Of a stretch of DNA of 64,000 nt, positions 3,636-60,252 are shown piece by piece. The notes beneath the pieces are model-generated. The model was not told the origin of the DNA and did not search any database. It saw nothing but the letters and a program-made list of their open reading frames with translations. The DNA is from Escherichia phage Ecwhy_1. Each line of letters starts with the position of its first letter. Position 1 is the first letter of the stretch. A program made the position numbers and the translations under genes. The stretch lies in the sequence record MH791411.1. One strand, 5' to 3'.

Positions 3636-3718
3636 GATTTTATTCCTTATTGTATTGGGGAGAACTATTCTCCCCTTGATGTAAACTATTATACAGTACT
3701 GATATACTTTGTCAATAC

Positions 3719-8052: not shown

Positions 8053-8135
8053 TTTTCTTTCCTCTTAGTGGGGAGAATCATTTCTCCCCTTCATGTAAAC
8101 TATTATACAGTACTGGATTGCATTGTCAATAGTTT

Positions 8136-9173: not shown

Positions 9174-9431
9174 TTATCTCATAGATCTATGCCAACAATT
9201 ACGCGGATCTCTTTTAAAAGTACTATCATGATCCTCCTGGCAAGTAATACAATACATGCACCCTATAACGGCCTGGCGTCGATTCTCAGGGATTTTATCG
9301 CCGCAGTCGAGGCAATGTACAAGTGATTCTCTTTGTGCGTTAATTTGCTTTCTAGCGTGGTTAACGGCGGCCTGAATCACTGCATGAATCTCGTCTTGTT
9401 CGGCCCCGTCTTTCGCGTATCCTACTGCCAT
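9174..9431 (-). CDS. TraR/DksA-like C4 zinc-finger protein (85 aa)
   Basis: C-x2-C...C-x2-C with CGDKIPENRR; SD GAGG. Confidence 0.55.
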   Translation of the reverse strand: MAVGYAKDGAEQDEIHAVIQAAVNHARKQINAQRESLVHCLDCGDKIPENRRQAVIGCMYCITCQEDHDSTFKRDPRNCWHRSMR

Positions 9432-9589
9432 TATTTTAACCTCATTATAAAAATACTATAGTACTGTAATGCTACAATAATACTACTAGTGTTTATCTTA
9501 TTCAAACCATATGATACTACATATCCACCAGCATTACCACGAATAGTAACGCCTTTGTACTGTCTATATAAATTCAACTGCGTATATTG

Positions 9590-9668
9590 CCTTTGATCAA
9601 GAATTGATCAGAATTATACGCCTTATGCTAAATTGATCCAGTACTTTTTTGATCATTTATTGATCGAT
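9590..9668. repeat. cluster of five TTGATC motifs (GATC sites)
   Basis: TTGATCAAGAATTGATCAGAA..AATTGATCC..TTTTTTGATCATTTATTGATCG. Confidence 0.5.
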
Positions 9669-9760
9669 ATTATATAGTTACATTTGTGCACCCTATGGGT
9701 TAGTGACGTTCTCGTCTTGATGTAAGTATTATGCCAGTACTGGAGGATATTGTCAATAGA

Positions 9761-9964
9761 TTATTTTAATTTTTTTCTGTCATTGATTAATGCTTTCAGT
9801 ACTATACTAATAACTTGCAATGATTCATCAATGACAATGAAATTATTCTCTTTCATTAGATGATAGTTACCATTGATTGTATATTCTAACGAGTACTGTT
9901 TACGTTTAATTTTTGATAATGTTTCTATTTGTTTTTGTACTGATTTCATGCTAATCATTGTCAA
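9761..9964 (-). CDS. hypothetical small protein (67 aa)
   Basis: ORF; weak SD AGGA. Confidence 0.45.
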   Translation of the reverse strand: MTMISMKSVQKQIETLSKIKRKQYSLEYTINGNYHLMKENNFIVIDESLQVISIVLKALINDRKKLK

Positions 9965-10064
9965 ACGTCCTGTAACGCATTCTAACGAGATAAACGGTTT
10001 AGTACTGGCATTGTATAGGGTAAATGATTAAAGCCCACCAGCGTTAACCAGTGGGCTATAATAT

Positions 10065-10208
10065 TACATCTTGCGGATAATCTTAACAGTATCTTTCACC
10101 GATTTACCGTTTTGCTGACATTGCTCGATCATCGCGTATTGTTCTGCGGTCAGATCCTCGCCAGTTTTTGCCAGTACTGCGTCGATGAATGAATCCAGTG
10201 CGATCATT
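10065..10208 (-). CDS. hypothetical small protein (~47 aa, not in track)
   Basis: TTGACA-N17-TATAAT, SD AAGAGAGAAAT, ATG; coordinates approximate. Confidence 0.35.
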
Positions 10209-10297
10209 TTATTTCTCTCTTAGGTTAAGTTAACTACTGTTTATAAAACTTATTATACAGTACTATCAATCTATGTCAATAGTACTGGTAATATATT

Positions 10298-10477
10298 TTA
10301 GCGGTAGTCGTCGTATGCTTTATTCACCTGGCGAATATAACTTTCAAAGGCTTCGTCTACCGTTTCATACTCCCGAACATAATCACCATATGAAACTACA
10401 TACATACCTTTTTGATCTTCAAACGTCATGATGATAGAATCCAGACCAACGATTTCAGTTTTTGCGATGATAGCCAT
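10298..10477 (-). CDS. hypothetical small protein (59 aa, not in track)
   Basis: TTGACA-N17-CATAAT, SD AAGGAA, ATG. Confidence 0.4.
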   Translation of the reverse strand: MAIIAKTEIVGLDSIIMTFEDQKGMYVVSYGDYVREYETVDEAFESYIRQVNKAYDDYR

Positions 10478-10560
10478 TTTTTAATTCCTTAGTAGTGTAG
10501 TTGATAAAAGTTATTATGTCAGTACTATCAAACTATGTCAATAGTACTGTGATAATATTT

Positions 10561-10773
10561 TTAGTTAATGATAGTCAGTGTAAAATTGTAATCACCGCAG
10601 CGATATAGCACGTTATTCCCAAATGTCCCAACTAATCGCACATCACACAAAACGCCGGTTTTTTCTTTTACTTCCTTGATACTTGTAACTCCTGTAATAT
10701 CTTTATTAAAGTATTCATGATCTGAAAATAAAACTTGTTTTGCATTTTTTAATTTCGACCGGATATTAGCCAT
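10561..10773 (-). CDS. hypothetical protein (70 aa)
   Basis: ORF; SD AGAGAGAAAAC; promoter + hairpin GGGGAGAAAAACTTCTCCCC. Confidence 0.55.
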   Translation of the reverse strand: MANIRSKLKNAKQVLFSDHEYFNKDITGVTSIKEVKEKTGVLCDVRLVGTFGNNVLYRCGDYNFTLTIIN

Positions 10774-10869
10774 TTTGTTTTCTCTCTCTGTTAGTGGGGA
10801 GAAGTTTTTCTCCCCTTGATGTAAACTATTATACAGTACTATAATCTATTGTCAAACTATTTTTTTATA

Positions 10870-14165: not shown

Positions 14166-14401
14166 TGTTTTGATTCCTTTGATTTGGAAGGAGAACCGTT
14201 TCCCCCTCTCGATGTAAAACATTATACGCTAATCTCTTAATCGTGCAAGTACTTTTTATTACTTTTTGCAAAATACTTTAAACGCTCTCAATCGCGTTCT
14301 TACAGCCTTAACGCCACCAGCTAGGGCAATGCATCAGATAATCAGTTTAATGCGTTAGAATCGTTTCTAGGCGGTGCTGGTGGCATGGTAAACGATAAAC
14401 A

Positions 14402-14430
14402 CAAAAAAGCCCACCGTTTAAGGTGGGCTA
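14402..14430 (-). terminator. intrinsic terminator
   Basis: Hairpin AGCCCACC-TTAAAC-GGTGGGCT + TTTTTTGT on - strand. Confidence 0.65.
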
Positions 14431-19764: not shown

Positions 19765-20127
19765 TTATTTGTAAATTTTGCCACTGTCAGCCCATACCAG
19801 GAAACGAGGCATATTATCCCATGCATCTTGTTTTAAGTTTAAGCCGTGCAATTCCTCAGTTGTTGCCATCCCTGGTACTGGCTTACTACACACCGCGAAA
19901 TTTTCGCCCATATACTGATAAACCATCGTCAAATCATTTGAGATCATTATATGGATCATTGAATCCAGCATCAAAGTAGCGGCGTATTGTTCACGCTTAA
20001 GCGGCAACATTGCAATAAGTTCCCGATAAGCTGCAATGTGAATTTTTACAGTTTCAGCCGGAAGACCTTTCATCTCATCGCGGAAGTTTACCAGGTTAAG
20101 CATGATTTTATTGATTTGAGTCGCCAT
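19765..20127 (-). CDS. hypothetical protein (120 aa)
   Basis: Trimmed to MATQINK start; promoter+hairpin. Confidence 0.6.
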   Translation of the reverse strand: MATQINKIMLNLVNFRDEMKGLPAETVKIHIAAYRELIAMLPLKREQYAATLMLDSMIHIMISNDLTMVYQYMGENFAVCSKPVPGMATTEELHGLNLKQDAWDNMPRFLVWADSGKIYK

Positions 20128-20242
20128 CGTTTTAATCTCTCTTAATGTGTAGCGGGAAGTGTTCCCGCTCTCGATGTAAAACATTATACGCTTTTATCAG
20201 TACGGTGCAAGTACTTTCTACAAATACTTTTAAAATAGTTTT

Positions 20243-20329
20243 CTTTCTATATAGGAGTACTATTATTCAGTACTGCAATCATCCAGGGGAACTATCTTTC
20301 TATATAGGAGTACTATTATTCAGTACTGA
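20243..20329. repeat. 34-bp direct repeat, two copies
   Basis: TCTTTCTATATAGGAGTACTATTATTCAGTACTG at about 20243 and 20296. Confidence 0.6.
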
Positions 20330-20490
20330 ATCAATCCACTAAATCATCCCTATACCCCGTAAAACGTCCTCAGACGCATTCTAACGCATTAATACACATA
20401 AGCTATACATTTGCACCATTCCAATCATTCCAGGGCTTTACAGGCCGTTTAAACGCGTTAAATTATTTTCAATTATTTTGTTTTTAGGTA

Positions 20491-20600
20491 TTGACTTGAT
20501 CCTGAAAAAGCGTATAATTACTACATAGACGCGAGAAAGCGGATACCCCAGGGGGTGGGAAGATCCGTCCAAAATTCAAGATATAAAAAAAGGATACACT
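20491..20600 (+). ncRNA. candidate + strand transcript in the non-coding region
   Basis: TTGACT-N16-TATAAT; leader with CCCCAGGGGGTGGG and GATCCGTCC. Confidence 0.3.
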
Positions 20601-20706
20601 CCCGCACCCTAGCAGGTAAACGCACTTTCTCAGTACTGAAATATAGTACCATAGTCCGGCCCAGGATAGCAAGCAAATTAATTAAAACTTTTTTGCTTCC
20701 AGGGTA

Positions 20707-20800
20707 TTGCTTTATTTTTCCAGTACTGTATAATAGTTCCATCAAGTCGAGAAAGACTCAAGCCCACCGGGTGCATAGTTACGCCCAAAATTCAGTACTG
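20707..20800 (+). ncRNA. candidate + strand transcript in the non-coding region
   Basis: TTGCTT..TGTATAAT (extended -10); leader CCATCAAGTCGAGAAAGACTCAAGCCCACCGGGTGC. Confidence 0.3.
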
Positions 20801-20954
20801 AAAAAATTTTTAAAAATATCCGGCCAGGCCGTTGACATTGCCCCCAGTTTATAAGATAATGATTCCAGATTCAGAAAAATCTAACACCAGATACTGCGGG
20901 GAAACTATCCCCACGCGGTAGGGGAACTATTGGAAAAAACAAAATAAAATTTTG

Positions 20955-21145
20955 ATTTAGCCGTCTATACTTCCAGACGTGTAACCATCTAGCCGTTTAG
21001 CCGTCCAAACGTCTAGCCATCCAGCCATCCAGAAATCTAGCCGTTTAGCCGTCTAGATGGATAGCCATCTTTACTTCCAGACTTCTGGAGGGCTAGACAT
21101 ATCTACGCCCAAAATCCATCCAGGGTAACTACGCCCAAAATCCGT
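20955..21145. repeat. iteron-like cluster of short direct and inverted repeats
   Basis: About 10 copies of TAGCCGT/TAGCCAT in about 120 bp; CTACGCCCAAAATCC twice; palindromes CCAGA..TCTGG, GATGG..CCATC. Confidence 0.5.
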
Positions 21146-22166
21146 CAGTACTATACCATAGATCTATCTTTTGAAAGGGAGTATTCAGTACTGCCATCAT
21201 AGCCCTCACTATGTTACCCTAGGAGGATGAAGACCATCATGTAGTACTGAATACTGTTAGAGGGAATCCACCAGCTTGTGCTGGTGGCATAATGCTTTAG
21301 ATTAAAATCAGTACTGACACCATTCTGTTAATATCAGTACTGTTATTACGATTTTCATATGAGGTTCAAAAAGATGTACCACCACAGGAGGAACTATCTT
21401 TTCTGTACTGTCTCACGACAGGAGGTAGAGTAAATGAATTGTTCGCAGCAACTCATCACCCTATGTAGAACATTATACAGTACTGAATCATAAAGTCAAT
21501 AACTTTCTTTCATCTTTCAGTACTGATATTCTTGAGAACTACCCGACTACAAACATCATTATATCCCACAAATCATAAACGTCCCAACGTAAATTTCAAC
21601 TTTCGAAGATCCAACTTTTATTTCATAGGTACTCCAAAATTTTTAGGATCGAGATTTAGGATGGAGTACTAACCAACTTTTTGCTGGAGCCTCAAGGGGT
21701 AATGGAATTTTACCCCGAAGGGTAAAGGGGTAATTGAAATTAAGGTGAAAGTAATAATTCAGTACTAATCATTGCGTGATTACTTTTGATTACATTTGAT
21801 GTAATTTGCAAAATGGAAAAGGAGCTTGGAAACTACAAAGTACGGCAGACTTCCTCTGCCTACTTAGTGGGATATCGCCACCTTCAGTACTGAATACTTT
21901 TAGGGCAGTACTGAATCCTTCCCTAGCATTCTTGAGTAATCTTGTCTATAATAATCAGTACTGAATCATATATAATCATTCTGTGATTCTACGGTGCTCA
22001 TATAAATGTTTATATATGATTACTTATGACTACATATGATTACGGGGTTTAGCCTGGGGAGAATCCTAGTGATCGCATTTGTCCAGGCTGAATTTTAACA
22101 ATTCTTCTAATTGTTAAAGCCTGTCCAATGCTTTCCCTGCGGAGCTTCCCCTGTCTATATGTTGAA

Positions 22167-22373
22167 TTACTTCCTATATATAAGCATTAACATATAGTAG
22201 TACTGATTATGCTGTACATTCTCTTTAATATTATAAGGGTCTATAGCAATCTCGGTACATCTGTTAAATGCATATCTATTAAATGCCAGTACTATTATAG
22301 ATCTAATCCATGCTTGGTCAGTCGGTGGTAGTTTACTTATATAGTACTCTTTATAGTTTTTTATGTTCTGCAT
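22167..22373 (-). CDS. small paralog family member (68 aa)
   Basis: Tandem family; N-terminal (K/E)EYY motif, hydrophobic C-terminus. Confidence 0.55.
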   Translation of the reverse strand: MQNIKNYKEYYISKLPPTDQAWIRSIIVLAFNRYAFNRCTEIAIDPYNIKENVQHNQYYYMLMLIYRK

Positions 22374-22384
22374 AGTATACCTTA

Positions 22385-22576
22385 TTATTTCAAAGTACCA
22401 TATAGTACTCTTAATAGGAAGTAGTACGTATTAGAGATATCATTAGTAGTTAAAACAATCTTTGTACACATATTAAATTCGTATTGAGTCATTGCCAGGG
22501 GGATTAAATTGTTAACCCATGCTTGTTCGTTTTCTTTTAGTTTACTTATATAGAAATCTTTATGTTCTTTATTCAT
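22385..22576 (-). CDS. small paralog family member (63 aa)
   Basis: Tandem family; MNKEHKDFY start. Confidence 0.55.
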   Translation of the reverse strand: MNKEHKDFYISKLKENEQAWVNNLIPLAMTQYEFNMCTKIVLTTNDISNTYYFLLRVLYGTLK

Positions 22577-22778
22577 ATAGGAATAGTATACCTATGATGC
22601 CGGAGTACATATTAGTACTGTTATTATTGTCGTTTGCGTTTAAAGTCATTTGAATACAATTATTGTAGCATACTCTGCCGAAATAAGTATCAGTACTTAA
22701 AGGTGCTGTAGTCCTTAGAAACATTTGTTCTGTGGGGCTGAGGTGTTTGGAGTAGAATTCTTTATGTTCTTTATTCAT
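22569..22778 (-). CDS. small paralog family member (69 aa)
   Basis: Tandem family; near-duplicate of 23152-23358. Confidence 0.55.
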   Translation of the reverse strand: MNKEHKEFYSKHLSPTEQMFLRTTAPLSTDTYFGRVCYNNCIQMTLNANDNNNSTNMYSGIIGILFLYE

Positions 22779-22783
22779 ATTAG

Positions 22784-22969
22784 TTAGTGTCTGTATATAA
22801 GTAATAGTAAGAATACGTACTGCACCTGTTCATCTTTAGTATTGAGTACTGTACGTATTGCGTCATGGAACAAGAATATAGTACTTGGGTCATTAGAATT
22901 TAAGGGGTTTACGGGGACGGCGTGTTTGTAGTTCCCTTTAACAAATTGTGTGTAGTATTCTCTATGCAT
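22784..22969 (-). CDS. small paralog family member (61 aa)
   Basis: Tandem family; MHREYYTQF start. Confidence 0.55.
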   Translation of the reverse strand: MHREYYTQFVKGNYKHAVPVNPLNSNDPSTIFLFHDAIRTVLNTKDEQVQYVFLLLLIYRH

Positions 22970-22970
22970 A

Positions 22971-23159
22971 TCAGTACCTATATATTAGGGCGAGAATGTA
23001 GTACAGTTTATATGTATTATAATCTGGGTTGATAGCACATAGTGTGTGGTAGTGGAATTGTTTGGTATTTTTCTTATCCTTGATATCTATTGGGTTTAGT
23101 GGTATAAGCATTTGGGAGTTTAGTTCCAGATGGTTTAAGTAGAATTCTTTGTTATTCAT
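22971..23159 (-). CDS. small paralog family member (62 aa)
   Basis: Tandem family; C-terminus LALIYRY. Confidence 0.55.
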   Translation of the reverse strand: MNNKEFYLNHLELNSQMLIPLNPIDIKDKKNTKQFHYHTLCAINPDYNTYKLYYILALIYRY

Positions 23160-23358
23160 AGAAGAATATTAGTCCCATTACGCCTGAGTACTGAATATTT
23201 TTGTTATTGTTTTCTAAAGCTTCTAGAGTAATACGTATACAATTATTAAAGCAATCTCTGGCGTGTGGTGTATCTAAACTTAAAGGTGATACACTCCTTA
23301 GAAACATTTGTTCTGATGCACTGAGGTGTTTGGTGTAAAATTCTTTCTGTTCGTTCAT
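23152..23358 (-). CDS. small paralog family member (68 aa)
   Basis: Tandem family. Confidence 0.55.
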   Translation of the reverse strand: MNEQKEFYTKHLSASEQMFLRSVSPLSLDTPHARDCFNNCIRITLEALENNNKNIQYSGVMGLIFFYE

Positions 23359-23368
23359 ATTGGCCTCT

Positions 23369-23557
23369 TTAGTACACGAAAGCTAGGTACAGGGTATGAT
23401 ACAGTACTCGATGATAGCTATCAAAATCTAGTATACATGCTTTAGTGCACATAGTAAAGTACACTTTATCGTTTTGAGCATTGATACCGCGAGGTTTATC
23501 TAATAGATTAGTACTGAGGTACATTGGGAAATATTTTGTGTAGTATTCTTTATGCAT
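23369..23557 (-). CDS. small paralog family member (62 aa)
   Basis: Trimmed to MHKEYY start. Confidence 0.5.
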   Translation of the reverse strand: MHKEYYTKYFPMYLSTNLLDKPRGINAQNDKVYFTMCTKACILDFDSYHRVLYHTLYLAFVY

Positions 23558-23558
23558 A

Positions 23559-23747
23559 TTAGTACCTGAATATAAGTAGGATAGTGTTATATAATTGGTC
23601 ATAGCTACTACTATTTTCTATACTGCGTTCTATGCAATTATTGAATCCCAGTACTGCCAAATCGTTATCCAGGGGGACTTTATATCTGGCGTAGTGTTCA
23701 AAAATACTGGGGAGAAATTGTGTGTAGTATTCTTTGTGGTTGTTCAT
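23559..23747 (-). CDS. small paralog family member (62 aa)
   Basis: Tandem family; MNNHKEYY start. Confidence 0.55.
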   Translation of the reverse strand: MNNHKEYYTQFLPSIFEHYARYKVPLDNDLAVLGFNNCIERSIENSSSYDQLYNTILLIFRY

Positions 23748-23748
23748 A

Positions 23749-23940
23749 TTAGTACTTATATATTAGTAAAAGGATGTGATACAGTACTCTATTATAGTCC
23801 TCAATATCTATCGAGGATTTAGTGCACTTAATGAAATAGTCTTTTTCGTAGTCTTTTTCTATACTCAATTGTTTTGTTGGTACAAGGTGTTGGAGATACA
23901 TTGGGAGTTTCTCTATGTAGTATTCTTTGTGGTTATTCAT
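23749..23940 (-). CDS. small paralog family member (63 aa)
   Basis: Tandem family; MNNHKEYY start. Confidence 0.55.
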   Translation of the reverse strand: MNNHKEYYIEKLPMYLQHLVPTKQLSIEKDYEKDYFIKCTKSSIDIEDYNRVLYHILLLIYKY

Positions 23941-23948
23941 ATTATGTG

Positions 23949-24122
23949 TTATTTCGTGAAAACAAGGGTTAGTACTGCATAGTACAAGTCATACGTATCT
24001 TTAGGGTTAATAGCACCTTTAATACATTCTTTCATTACTTCATTATAGATAATTTTAGTACTGAATGTATTGGATGTTACTATATCGGAATTAAGGTACG
24101 AGAGGTAGAATTCTTTATACAT
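23949..24122 (-). CDS. small paralog family member (57 aa)
   Basis: Trimmed to MYKEFY start. Confidence 0.5.
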   Translation of the reverse strand: MYKEFYLSYLNSDIVTSNTFSTKIIYNEVMKECIKGAINPKDTYDLYYAVLTLVFTK

Positions 24123-24774
24123 AGTTTGTAATATACGTAATGAGGTGATGAAATTTCTTATCAGTACTGATAAGTTCCTGTACATGTTTTGTTAGTTTGT
24201 ACGCGTTTTTATAGAGTCCTGGATTATCGATTACAGTACTGTACATGAATTCTTCTTCCTCGGATAATTCTTTGTGTTCTAGTTCTTTGAGGAATTGCAG
24301 TACTGTATCAGTTTCGTTAGTACGTTGCTTTTGGAAGAAGTGCATGTTATCGTGTATTTTTTCTGAACCCATGCAGTACATATCGCCGATTTGGAATTGT
24401 GCAGTACTGATATCATGGGTGCTATTACAATTCCCGAAGAAGTATACATTCCCGAAAGATAGAATTATAGTGCACGGGATATTATCCATGTGTATATAGA
24501 TAGATGCATTCTTTAGTGCTTTTGTGCTGGTATTAGTACTCAATACTTTTAAATCAGTATTATAGATATTAATAAAAGCAAGAGCTATATTATTTTTCTT
24601 CAAGTACGATTTGAGGTTCTTAGATACGAGAACATTTCTGGATTTTTTCTTTTTATTTCGTTTCTTTAGTACATTTGGGTCGTAAGTATATACTGGTGTA
24701 AAAGATTCTGCTTGAATACTGTTGAGGTATTTAAAGTGCTTAAGGTATTGTTTACTGTGTGCATTAAGTTTCAT
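24115..24774 (-). CDS. hypothetical protein (219 aa) embedded in the small-paralog array
   Basis: ORF; Lys-rich central region; no family motif. Confidence 0.55.
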   Translation of the reverse strand: MKLNAHSKQYLKHFKYLNSIQAESFTPVYTYDPNVLKKRNKKKKSRNVLVSKNLKSYLKKNNIALAFINIYNTDLKVLSTNTSTKALKNASIYIHMDNIPCTIILSFGNVYFFGNCNSTHDISTAQFQIGDMYCMGSEKIHDNMHFFQKQRTNETDTVLQFLKELEHKELSEEEEFMYSTVIDNPGLYKNAYKLTKHVQELISTDKKFHHLITYITNYV

Positions 24775-41011: not shown

Positions 41012-42136
41012 ATGTTACCTTTCGTATTGTTATTTGATTATGGGAACGAAAAACAAGAAAGTTCTTATGATGTTAGTGTATATGGAAACAATAACTACAT
41101 TTTAAATAAACAAACTGGAAACCTTTTTGCATCCGGTGCTGCGGCATTCATGGGTGATAACACAGTTAAGTATTATATTACCCAAATAGAATCAAATGTT
41201 CATAGCTGTGAGATAGGTTTCCTATCATCATGGATAATTAAGAAGGACAAAACTGTTTTCATTTTAGGAAACAAAAGCAGTATAGGATTAACTGGTTCGA
41301 CAACATCATGGTTCGAAATTACAAATTTATTTTCTGCTGTTCCTGAAATATGGGACAACCTATTTGAATGTAAAGTTCAATTGGGATATAACTGTATACG
41401 TGTTATGACACCACTAGGATCAATCTATGCGATTGGTACAAACACTTATGGTGCATTGGGTACTGGTACTACATCCTCATCAACTTCGTTCGTTAAAAGT
41501 GGTGCTGTGGATGCTGTACGCATGGAATCAACAGAACGTTCAGTGTTCTATCAAAACAGTTCTGGACAATGGTTTGGATGTGGTGATAACACATATGGTA
41601 TACTAGGTCTAGGAACTACCGCGAGTCGTGTAAACTCATACACCGCACCAGTATGGACTAATGCAGAAGCTGTTAGCTTCTCTAACCGTGGGATCATATA
41701 CAGCCTCAATGGTACTCTATACTCATGTGGTGACAAAGTTAATGGTCAGCTAGGGGATGGATATACACAAAGCATAGACGCTGCCAGGAGCACACCATAC
41801 ACCATAGGAACCGCATTCCAAATTGGTAAGGCAATAACATCAGCTACACAAGCATCAGCCAACGTATTCATTGGTAAAGATAATAAGTTCTATGGTACTG
41901 GTAGTATTGCTGCTGGTATAAATGGTAGTGCTAGTGCTGCATTAAGTAAAGTTACTGCGTTATCAGCATCACTACCACCTGACATTACATACAATGATAT
42001 TATAACATTTAATACAGGGACCGTAACTTTTATTCAAGCAAAAGGACAACTATATTATGTTGGTAGAAGAACTTACATAGATAATAGTTCAGACGTTACC
42101 ACACAGTTCAGTGTAATTGGTGGCTTAGATAATTAA
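41012..42136 (+). CDS. RCC1-like repeat protein, divergent paralog 12 (374 aa)
   Basis: MLPFVLLFDYGN; blocks GTNTYGALGTG, GDNTYGILGLG, VNGQLGDGY; SD AAGGAG. Confidence 0.7.
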   Translation: MLPFVLLFDYGNEKQESSYDVSVYGNNNYILNKQTGNLFASGAAAFMGDNTVKYYITQIESNVHSCEIGFLSSWIIKKDKTVFILGNKSSIGLTGSTTSWFEITNLFSAVPEIWDNLFECKVQLGYNCIRVMTPLGSIYAIGTNTYGALGTGTTSSSTSFVKSGAVDAVRMESTERSVFYQNSSGQWFGCGDNTYGILGLGTTASRVNSYTAPVWTNAEAVSFSNRGIIYSLNGTLYSCGDKVNGQLGDGYTQSIDAARSTPYTIGTAFQIGKAITSATQASANVFIGKDNKFYGTGSIAAGINGSASAALSKVTALSASLPPDITYNDIITFNTGTVTFIQAKGQLYYVGRRTYIDNSSDVTTQFSVIGGLDN

Positions 42137-60060: not shown

Positions 60061-60252
60061 TCAACCTTTATTTTGAAGTTCTTGAACTAATTGTCGTACT
60101 TCTTTGATGTTATGACACTGCTTTACAGTGAAGTAATCATACTTACGACCATAGGTTCTTGGATCATCACCTTCCATATACTGCTGCACATCAAAGATTT
60201 GTAAGTAGGGATGCTGCATAACACGAATGTTACCACATTGATAAATCAACAT
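60061..60252 (-). CDS. hypothetical small protein (about 63 aa)
   Basis: Track ORF begins at a GTG; trimmed to ATG with SD GAGGA. Confidence 0.45.
   Translation of the reverse strand: MLIYQCGNIRVMQHPYLQIFDVQQYMEGDDPRTYGRKYDYFTVKQCHNIKEVRQLVQELQNKG

Follow-up and report, generated by a model that had tools for sequence, protein, structure and literature searches.

A conserved gene-free stretch of Escherichia phage Ecwhy_1 probably forms the inner, untranslated end of a ~21-kb direct terminal repeat

The 64,000-nucleotide stretch of Escherichia phage Ecwhy_1 DNA analysed here (MH791411.1; hereafter the window) contains a conserved, repeat-dense and gene-free stretch at positions 20128–22166. 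This stretch is likely to be the untranslated inner end of a direct terminal repeat (DTR) of ~21 kb and would carry a composite cis-acting control region; ~1.7 kb of it lies inside the DTR and ~0.3 kb beyond. The phage is placed with the Asteriusvirus jumbo phages (PBECO4/121Q/G17 group; ~350 kb), with the window forming the left genome end. In BLAST searches the gene-free segment matches 43 phage records, all from ~350-kb phages of this group; 33 of the 43 cover at least 80% of it, and the closest match is fEgEco12 (99.2%). The ~1.1-kb ‘insertions’ suggested by some of these matches are explained, in PBECO4, by alignment to the start of a paralogous gene that lies further left, with no insertion in the region. 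A DTR has already been published for the group; the content of its untranslated end, which comprises a cut-site palindrome, a unique cross-genus element, phased arrays, a Chi hairpin within a polarised Chi island and orphan promoters, is not described in the publications on G17, fEgEco12 and Sharanji.

An earlier note, made from the letters of the window, had proposed a replication origin or a genome terminus, calling the architecture typical of origins, packaging sites or terminal-repeat boundaries. The reading as a genome terminus at a terminal-repeat boundary is strongly supported: the mapped termini of close relatives (G17, fEgEco12 and Sharanji) establish the existence of the DTR and place its end at window 21864|21865, where the sequence reads ...CTGCCTACT|TAGTGG. 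The read-end and coverage analysis proposed as a check is positive in the published data for these three phages. The window is collinear with G17 from its first nucleotide, which corresponds to G17 position 90, i.e. 89 nt inside the left physical end of G17. In the G17 record, genes 00001–00053 recur as genes 00614–00666 with an offset of 350,149 nt, giving a repeat of 20,668 bp, and the right end reads ...ggcagacttcctctgcctact. The termini of G17 rest on read coverage; the DTR of Sharanji, as determined with PhageTerm, equals the length derived from the G17 record (20,668 bp), and for fEgEco12 PhageTerm and restriction digests give 20,993 bp. The fEgEco12 record, submitted in reverse orientation and sequenced in another laboratory, starts at precisely the nucleotide that forms the right terminus of G17. 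The deposited ends of both phages read ...cttcctctgcctact, which maps to window 21864; the other terminus, AGGTTACCCGCCC, is also common to them, both termini being nucleotide-identical, and the two ends of the fEgEco12 record match each other. In ECO103, a relative with 97.8% identity whose assembly is collapsed, the distance between the two terminal motifs is 21,275 bp. The segment is always 18–22 kb from one record end in relatives deposited at >360 kb, and is found at arbitrary positions in ~348-kb records. The left cut, GCTA|AGG, is common to G17 and Klebsiella phage fENko-Kae01.

At the 21864|21865 junction the right physical end of the packaged DNA would be generated; in the replicating concatemer, the same junction would form one edge of a single, shared DTR copy. 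The motifs ...CTGCCTACT|TAGTGG and GCTA|AGGTTACCC can serve to correct assemblies in which the DTR is collapsed or misplaced, such as that of UE-S1, for which an 8.3-kb repeat is claimed.

The architecture of the cut site itself is distinctive (Table 1). The terminal palindrome folds at z = -4.0, which none of 200 shuffles equalled, and in fENko-Kae01 a hairpin with a 7-bp stem begins 1 nt from the end. Among eight genomes, the ~100 nt to the left of the cut are 96–98% invariant, and the 300 nt to its left 86–98% invariant. Conservation collapses ~10 nt beyond the cut, giving way to an indel-rich segment of ~130 nt (26–29% of columns invariant and 24–38% gapped at 21900–22000), and returns to 100% at 22050–22100. 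The repeated TGATTAC motifs remarked on previously are present on both sides of the cut as arrays with a 10-bp period (21777–21800 and 22006–22043). The left array is nearly invariant, with a single substitution in its second box in UE-S1 alone; the right array, which is preceded by a 17-bp inverted repeat (arms 21964–21980 and 22005–22021), is almost invariant, with one box split by a 30-nt insertion in UE-S1. Across the window TGATTAC is not enriched (17 observed versus 15.5 expected, four of the 17 clustering in these arrays); as a genome-wide signal it was rejected, and only the local, phased clusters are noteworthy.

Inside the DTR lies an element shared between genera. Its 43-nt core, which contains a AGTACTCC/GGAGTACT inverted repeat around a 13-bp tandem TTTAGGAT(C/G)GAG, is unique in a 352-kb genome at up to two mismatches, and 92–96% of the columns of the element are invariant within the genus. 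The core is 93% identical in fENko-Kae01, and a 67-nt stretch (21623–21689) is 82% identical in the Mimasvirus XbC2; shorter stretches match Salmonella phages 7t3, SE_PL and PHA46 (93%) and Erwinia phage Hallingskeid (86%). The element is one of a series of modules, comprising the -10 hexamer and leader of promoter P1, an 8-bp array, the Chi hairpin, a CAGTACTG box and the 43-nt element, that occur in the same order across the window, XbC2 and fENko-Kae01, the 8-bp array being placed from the comparison with XbC2 and the Chi hairpin (81%) from that with fENko-Kae01. A gene-free DTR end is also found in fENko-Kae01, XbC2 and Muenster, the records of which all begin with 0.8–1.6 kb of unannotated sequence; the DTRs given by PhageTerm are 19,736 bp for fENko-Kae01 and 20,030 bp for Muenster. 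The 43-nt element is a candidate recognition site for a conserved packaging machinery. A terminase or associated nuclease would recognise it, possibly aided by the TGATTAC triplets on both sides, and would then cut at the outer base of the terminal palindrome.

XbC2 (OP292654.1, 1–1620) is recorded as a Xanthomonas phage, and it shares the P1 leader, the array of 8-bp units and the 43-nt element with enterobacterial jumbo phages. It also has a Chi of the E. coli type, 215 nt inside its terminus. Its recorded host, or the recency of a host change, may deserve a check.

Table 1. Features mapped in and around the gene-free stretch (window coordinates; the cut is at 21864|21865).
Feature	Position	Strand	Remarks
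P5 and leader of first DTR gene	20128–20218	-	-35 TTGCAC (20210–20205), 16-nt spacer, -10 TATAAT (20188–20183)
53-bp tandem duplication	20242–20285 / 20295–20338		Two 44-nt copies, 91% identical
P1, orphan rightward promoter TTGACT-16-TATAAT	20491–20518	+	11/12 hexamer positions
Conserved element downstream of P1	20526–20625	+	5′ hairpin CGC-GAGAAA-GCG; long-range stem GGGTGCGG/CCGCACCC enclosing a variable insert
P2, orphan rightward promoter TTGCTT-16-TATAAT	20707–20734	+	CAGTACTG abuts -10 hexamer
P3, orphan rightward promoter TTGACA-17-GATAAT	20832–20860	+	11/12 hexamer positions
8-bp-unit array TAGCCGTC/CCATCTAG	20958–21056		Tandem Repeats Finder; 12.4 copies; flanked by short palindromes
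Chi/anti-Chi hairpin CCACCAGC-TTGT-GCTGGTGG	21268–21287		Plus-strand Chi at 21280–21287
Pair of CAGTACTG boxes forming a 9-bp stem	21309–21342		Fold z = -2.8; invariant in relatives
P4, leftward promoter TTGACT-16-TATAAT	21472–21499	-	CAGTACTG in spacer; no open reading frame downstream
Cross-genus element GGTACTCC-AAAAT-TTTAGGATCGAGA-TTTAGGATGGAGTACT...TTTTTGCTGGAG	21628–21689		43-nt core at 21628–21670
Hairpin GGGGTAA-TGGAATT-TTACCCC	21696–21716		Fold z = -2.3
Left TGATTAC/TGATTAC/TGATGTA array, 10-bp-phased	21777–21806	+	58–87 nt inside the cut
Terminal palindrome AAGTAcGGCAGA-cttcc-TCTGCC-TACTT	21838–21865		Interrupted 11-bp palindrome; cut at outer base
Hypervariable segment outside DTR	21875–22000		Indels; 1–3 CAGTACTG copies
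Right TGATTAC/TGACTAC/TGATTAC array, 10-bp-phased	22006–22043	+	153–179 nt outside the cut
Invariant block, then two hairpins, AGCCTGG...CCAGGCT and TTAACAATT-CTTCT-AATTGTTAA	22045–22118		Fold z = -3.9
DTR Chi, minus strand	1272, 3074, 4978, 7326, 8575, 9525, 10035, 14314, 21268	-	9 sites
DTR Chi, plus strand	14376, 21280	+	2 sites

The distribution of the Chi octamer, GCTGGTGG, also marks the DTR out. Chi occurs 15 times in the window, each time in a different sequence context, versus 0.67 expected (0 of 100 shuffles reach 15), and ranks first or second among over-represented 8-mers in the DTRs of the window and G17. The DTR (window 1–21864) is a polarised Chi island, with 11 sites in 21.9 kb versus 17 in the other 331 kb of a relative. 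Genome-wide, the density is one per 1.9 kb in the DTR and one per 19 kb in the other 331 kb, a ~10-fold difference. The nine minus-strand sites are in the orientation active for RecBCD entering the left end, and the strand split in the G17 DTR is 9/1. The mirror-image pattern is seen in fENko-Kae01 (12/2, with an inverted pair or hairpin ~490 bp from the terminus), and in XbC2 a single Chi in the correct orientation lies 215 nt from the end.

The inverted Chi hairpin picked out in the earlier note is present, with a fold z of -3.45. According to the published orientation rule (PMC12315714), its plus-strand Chi, 577–584 nt from the cut, is in the orientation active for RecBCD entering the right terminus, and it is invariant in 8/8 relatives. 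The 4-nt loop (21276–21279) occurs in both orientations among close relatives, reading TTGT in the window, PBECO4, SP27 and UB and ACAA in fEgEco12, G17, 121Q and UE-S1, which suggests that the palindrome centre has recurrently inverted in vivo.

We infer that the Chi hairpin shields the right end and renders it recombinogenic, with the minus-strand array playing the corresponding part at the left end. RecBCD entering at the right end would meet the hairpin Chi as its first correctly oriented Chi, ~580 bp in, and would be switched from degradation to RecA loading; the nine co-oriented DTR sites would act likewise at the left end, and together the sites would favour recombination of the two DTR copies into circles or concatemers. 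Terminal clusters of oriented Chi sites have been described for the lambdoid phage LLS and for bacteriophage P1, and their proposed role is to drive terminal repeats to recombine in a RecBCD-dependent manner (PMC12315714; bioRxiv 10.1101/2021.07.08.451572); these papers make no mention of jumbo phages. As in those phages, the exact E. coli octamer is strongly over-represented here; its copies cluster within or close to the terminal redundancy, in the orientation that acts on RecBCD entering from the nearby end. Unlike them, the present phage is virulent, has a 350-kb genome and fixed-sequence DTRs, bears a palindromic Chi/anti-Chi hairpin ~0.5 kb from one end and has Chi sites far denser in the DTR than elsewhere.

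At several DTR Chi sites the sequence codes for Ala-Gly-Gly (GCT GGT GGn). An inverted Chi pair, the second to face outward (CCACCAGC, 54 nt, GCTGGTGG), lies at 14314–14383, between two minus-strand DTR genes and adjoining a terminator-like hairpin (14409–14430). In OR844650.1, rotated to its left terminus, plus-strand Chi sites are found at 41232, 41487 and 41745 (~256-bp spacing), presumably in tandemly repeated genes where gene orientation switches.

The gene-free stretch also carries promoters. The outward-facing promoters proposed previously include near-consensus sigma-70 sites, matching at 11/12 hexamer positions, at 20491 (+), 20832 (+) and 21499 (-). Promoter-like matches in the region are not above the shuffled level (15 versus 13.8), and it is the quality and conservation of the individual sites, rather than their total number, that count. 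P1–P3 stand in tandem, face rightward and have no open reading frame (ORF) downstream; no convincing intrinsic terminators were found for these rightward orphan transcripts, the terminator-like sites all being on the minus strand. Both P1 hexamers are invariant in eight relatives, with a variable spacer, and its -10 hexamer and ~65 nt of leader are 87–90% conserved in XbC2 and fENko-Kae01. The long-range stem in this leader is kept in a consensus fold of six sequences from three genera, with one compensatory pair, and the insert that it encloses (45–63 nt) is unrelated in fENko-Kae01; the element is perhaps a structured RNA or a DNA inverted repeat. The 20-nt -10 region of P2, a promoter conserved in eight relatives, is identical to that of a gene promoter at 8117–8098, and in 121Q the spacer sequence of P3 is replaced with both hexamers and the 17-nt spacing kept. 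The leftward P4 (11/12 hexamer positions) is invariant in relatives. P5 is conserved in eight relatives; its leader can form the hairpin AGCGGGAA-CA-CTTCCCGCT, and the start codon of the gene would be the ATG at 20127. Both P4 and P5 belong to a family of minus-strand promoter cassettes in the DTR, where 26 strong members share the arrangement TTGACA, 8–9 nt, AGTACTG, TATAAT, leader ...ACATCAAG and hairpin. With host RNA polymerase, P5 and P4 would fire leftward into ~50 small early genes and the gene-less P1–P3 would fire rightward.

The most frequent motif, CAGTACTG, had been overlooked; it occurs 13 times in the region and 68 times in the window, versus 0.9 expected. The DTR promoter family explains part of this excess, 21 of the 68 sites adjoining a -10 hexamer. 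The shorter AGTACT has a density of 10/kb in the region, versus 6.4/kb in the DTR and 3.5/kb in the unique part, and is abundant in fENko-Kae01 (129 in 24 kb). The boxes would in part be a spacer or extended -10 element of the early-promoter family and are probably also bound by a conserved, putative dimeric DNA-binding protein. A literature search for CAGTACTG in phages returned nothing relevant. In the 352-kb relative OR844650.1 there are 204 copies of CAGTACTG, at ~2/kb in the DTR versus ~0.5/kb elsewhere, many of them inside genes.

The absence of credible coding sequence, on which the earlier note had placed weight, is borne out by comparison. Seven of the eight ORFs of 35–99 aa are broken by a frameshift, a stop or a lost start in several of the seven aligned relatives, and the sole intact one, a 44-aa ORF with a TTG start, sits on invariant promoter sequence. 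The same ~1.9–2 kb was left unannotated by five independent teams (G17, 121Q, PBECO4, SP27 and UB). The flanking genes match PHROGs of unknown function. The gap is real, but the extent first given to it (20185–22166) is slightly too short: the left gene most likely starts at 20127 (120 aa) rather than at 20184 (139 aa), because the upstream ATG (20184) coincides in part with the -10 hexamer of the gene itself, the protein annotated in relatives has 120 aa, and the 139-aa ORF matches its PHROG only from residue 18 onwards. The non-coding stretch therefore runs from 20128 to 22166. The 139-aa call (19765–20184), the start of which is probably too far upstream, is also used in G17 and fEgEco12.

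These observations bear on the possibility that the region consists mainly of unannotated small genes or small RNAs, rather than acting as a cis element at the level of DNA. The strong promoters with conserved downstream sequence would fit such a reading, above all the P1 leader with its conservation across genera and long-range stem, as would a perfectly spaced Shine-Dalgarno sequence and ATG at 21416, which open a 19-aa ORF, and the ‘hypothetical proteins’ that some pipelines call here. We nevertheless regard it as very unlikely, as the ORFs of at least 35 aa are disrupted in relatives and the 19-aa ORF was itself rejected: an 8-nt insertion in G17 cuts it to 10 aa, and its substitutions in UE-S1 are all non-synonymous. 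ARAGORN found no transfer RNA or transfer-messenger RNA in the whole window, and no Rfam family was matched, a scan at permissive E-value giving two chance-level matches far under the gathering score. Small RNAs would moreover leave the exact terminus, the Chi orientation and the tandem arrays unexplained. Automated ‘hypothetical proteins’ called in 20128–22166 should be deleted from annotations.

The layout of the DTR end invites comparison with phage T5, in which an untranslated region (Repeat Region 3, or injection stop signal, iss) at the inner end of the left terminal repeat spans 9194–10856 around the end of the long terminal repeat at 10,139 (Davison). Here, too, the end of a terminal repeat falls within a large untranslated region with many repeats and palindromes (20128–22166 around 21864), which lies mostly inside the long terminal repeat and overruns into unique DNA, is conserved among relatives, and adjoins a block of small early genes. 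Unlike T5, the region has no paired DnaA boxes and no long inverted repeats of the IRC/IRD type, and the DTR is twice as long. Self-BLAST found no long inverted repeats linking the region to other parts of the DTR, only promoter cassettes of up to 38 nt, and BLAST matches were to jumbo phages only, with no sequence homology to T5. Because DnaA boxes, IRC/IRD repeats and homology are all absent, the resemblance is architectural rather than familial.

Phage T7 offers a second comparison. Its left end is said to hold a control region with the terminal repeat, arrays of short repeats and the tandem host promoters A1–A3. By this account, the likenesses are a gene-free terminal region, short tandem arrays close to the edge of the terminal repeat, a tandem trio of strong sigma-70 promoters ~125–220 nt apart and a defined cut at the concatemer junction; the differences are that the T7 repeat is reportedly 160 bp versus 21 kb here, that there is no homology, and that the T7 promoters reportedly point along genes whereas P1–P3 point away from the DTR genes. 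The Bacillus phage SPO1 is likewise said to carry a ‘host-takeover module’ in a 13-kb terminal redundancy, and would resemble the present phage in having a long terminal repeat packed with small early genes that each possess a strong host-type promoter, although the host and the promoter sequences differ; we know of no comparable untranslated boundary region in SPO1.

A T5-like role in injection control would have the left DTR enter the cell first, transfer pause at the gene-free stretch, and ~330 kb follow after early expression, the rest of the DNA perhaps being pulled in by RNA polymerase from P1–P3, as with T7 A1–A3. We consider this quite unlikely as an account of the region. It would suit the T5-like arrangement, in which a long repeat of small early genes ends in more than 1.6 kb of untranslated repeats and palindromes overrunning the boundary, the three tandem orphan promoters that point from the DTR into the remaining genome, and the placing of most active-orientation Chi sites so as to guard the left end, as befits a leading end. 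However, the paired DnaA boxes stressed for the T5 iss are absent, as are T5 IRC/IRD-like long inverted repeats, only promoter cassettes being shared; two-step transfer, which in T5 depends on the pre-early proteins A1/A2, is not reported for these phages. T5 A1 is a large protein, and nothing of its size is encoded in the DTR, where the largest ORF is of 213 aa. A still more speculative form of the idea, to which we give a slim chance, is a staged delivery in which the 21-kb DTR with ~50 host-takeover genes enters first, transfer pauses here, ~330 kb is drawn in by host RNA polymerase from P1–P3, and the Chi island and hairpin turn RecBCD into a DTR-recombining enzyme; if true, a jumbo phage would be using a T5/T7-hybrid mode of entry.

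Another part of the original proposal, a replication origin, is not supported. The iteron-like cluster exists as an array with an 8-bp period (12.4 copies). The copy number differs in relatives (one unit more in fEgEco12, two fewer in G17), the segment folds at z = -4.1, and an array of the same unit lies 680–770 nt from the end of XbC2. Iterons have a unit of ~17–22 bp and an adjacent initiator gene; the 8-bp period here mismatches the helical repeat, and no Rep-type or other initiator gene lies next to the array. DnaA boxes (TTWTNCACA) are absent from 20128–22166, and the whole window holds six versus 13.4 expected. The cumulative GC-skew check that had been suggested does give a window minimum at ~22 kb, but this is one of several inflections across the 352-kb genome of a relative (the others at ~45, ~185 and ~225 kb). 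Because the sign of the skew follows the ORF strand in every 10-kb bin genome-wide, the minimum is not specific and was not taken as an origin marker.

T7 and T4 have origins that combine a promoter with AT-rich DNA, and a comparable arrangement, in which transcripts from P1–P3 prime or open the A/T-rich tract at 20934–20957 and the 8-bp array binds an initiator, could coexist with a terminus. Three strong, conserved promoters without a downstream gene, followed by an A-rich tract and a 12-copy array of short units that is conserved in XbC2, would accord with it, as would the position of the skew minimum. Given the missing DnaA boxes and initiator gene, the period of the array, a skew that tracks the gene strand, and an A/T-rich tract of only ~25 nt, we judge an origin of this kind to be unlikely.

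Several points weigh against reading the gene-free stretch as the DTR end with its control region. The window holds one DTR copy only, so that for this genome the duplication and the exact cut are extrapolated from relatives that are 93–99% identical. No motif common to the left-end and right-end cut contexts was found. The 43-nt element lies ~195 nt from the end here versus 53–127 nt from the known or deposited ends in other genera, and, because the terminal nucleotides differ between genera, it may not be the cut-site determinant. Chi is absent from the first 2.7 kb of Muenster, and Hallingskeid has no Chi in the expected orientation near its presumed end. The polarity of Chi could partly be a coding effect, because the strand favoured by Chi is also the one that codes for the DTR genes. 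Promoters do not fully explain CAGTACTG, because only 21 of its 68 sites adjoin a -10 hexamer. More generally, the functions ascribed to the elements of the region are deduced from sequence features and their conservation. Packaging, delivery and protection of the 350-kb chromosome are essentially unstudied in the RaK2/PBECO4 lineage, for which published work gives the repeat length and little more, and the analysis provides a concrete, conserved map of candidate cis-acting sites, each of which can be mutated or tested in vitro.

The region holds further repeats and hairpins. The 34-bp direct repeat reported earlier is the core of a 53-bp tandem duplication, each 44-nt copy of which carries AGTACT and CAGTACTG boxes; copy number varies among relatives, with one or a partial copy in G17, 121Q and UB, and 20% of the columns are invariant. 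For the ‘paired hairpins’, the GGGGTAA hairpin is present, its stem kept in 7/8 relatives and one base of the 3′ arm lost in UE-S1, but no convincing second, paired hairpin was found. At the right edge of the region, the block at 22045–22118 sits downstream of the first unique-region gene (stop at 22167). Every column at 22050–22099 is invariant, and the second hairpin of the block is kept as a palindrome with a different sequence, TTAACATATG-CAA-CATATGTTAA, in G17 and UE-S1.

The window also contains a second class of promoter, TTGACT-(t/c)(c/a)GGTCAG(c/t)CC(c)TTTT(t)GC-TAT(A/T)AT followed by (t/c)ATTTCATC, with a conserved spacer distinct from that of the AGTACTG class. Its sites, on the minus strand, are at 60064, 56470, 55690, 53427, 48953, 47146, 45508, 11424, 7414, 4144 and 1387, and it may represent a different temporal class. 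The most over-represented 8-mers of the DTR are GGGGAGAA and TTCTCCCC (14 each versus 0.23 expected), which form a leader hairpin, GGGGAGAA-N3-TTCTCCCC, directly after the ACATCAA start of many early transcripts (for example at 3715–3660, 8129–8075 and 10855–10800, minus strand); the apparent ribosome-binding site is therefore part of a 5′ stem-loop. Directly outside the DTR, 22167–24185 (minus strand) is a tandem array of ~10 paralogous genes of 61–78 aa, the three scanned members of which all match phrog_11711 (unknown function). The GC content there is 33%, and the GC skew has the opposite sign to that of the DTR genes, which also lie on the minus strand.

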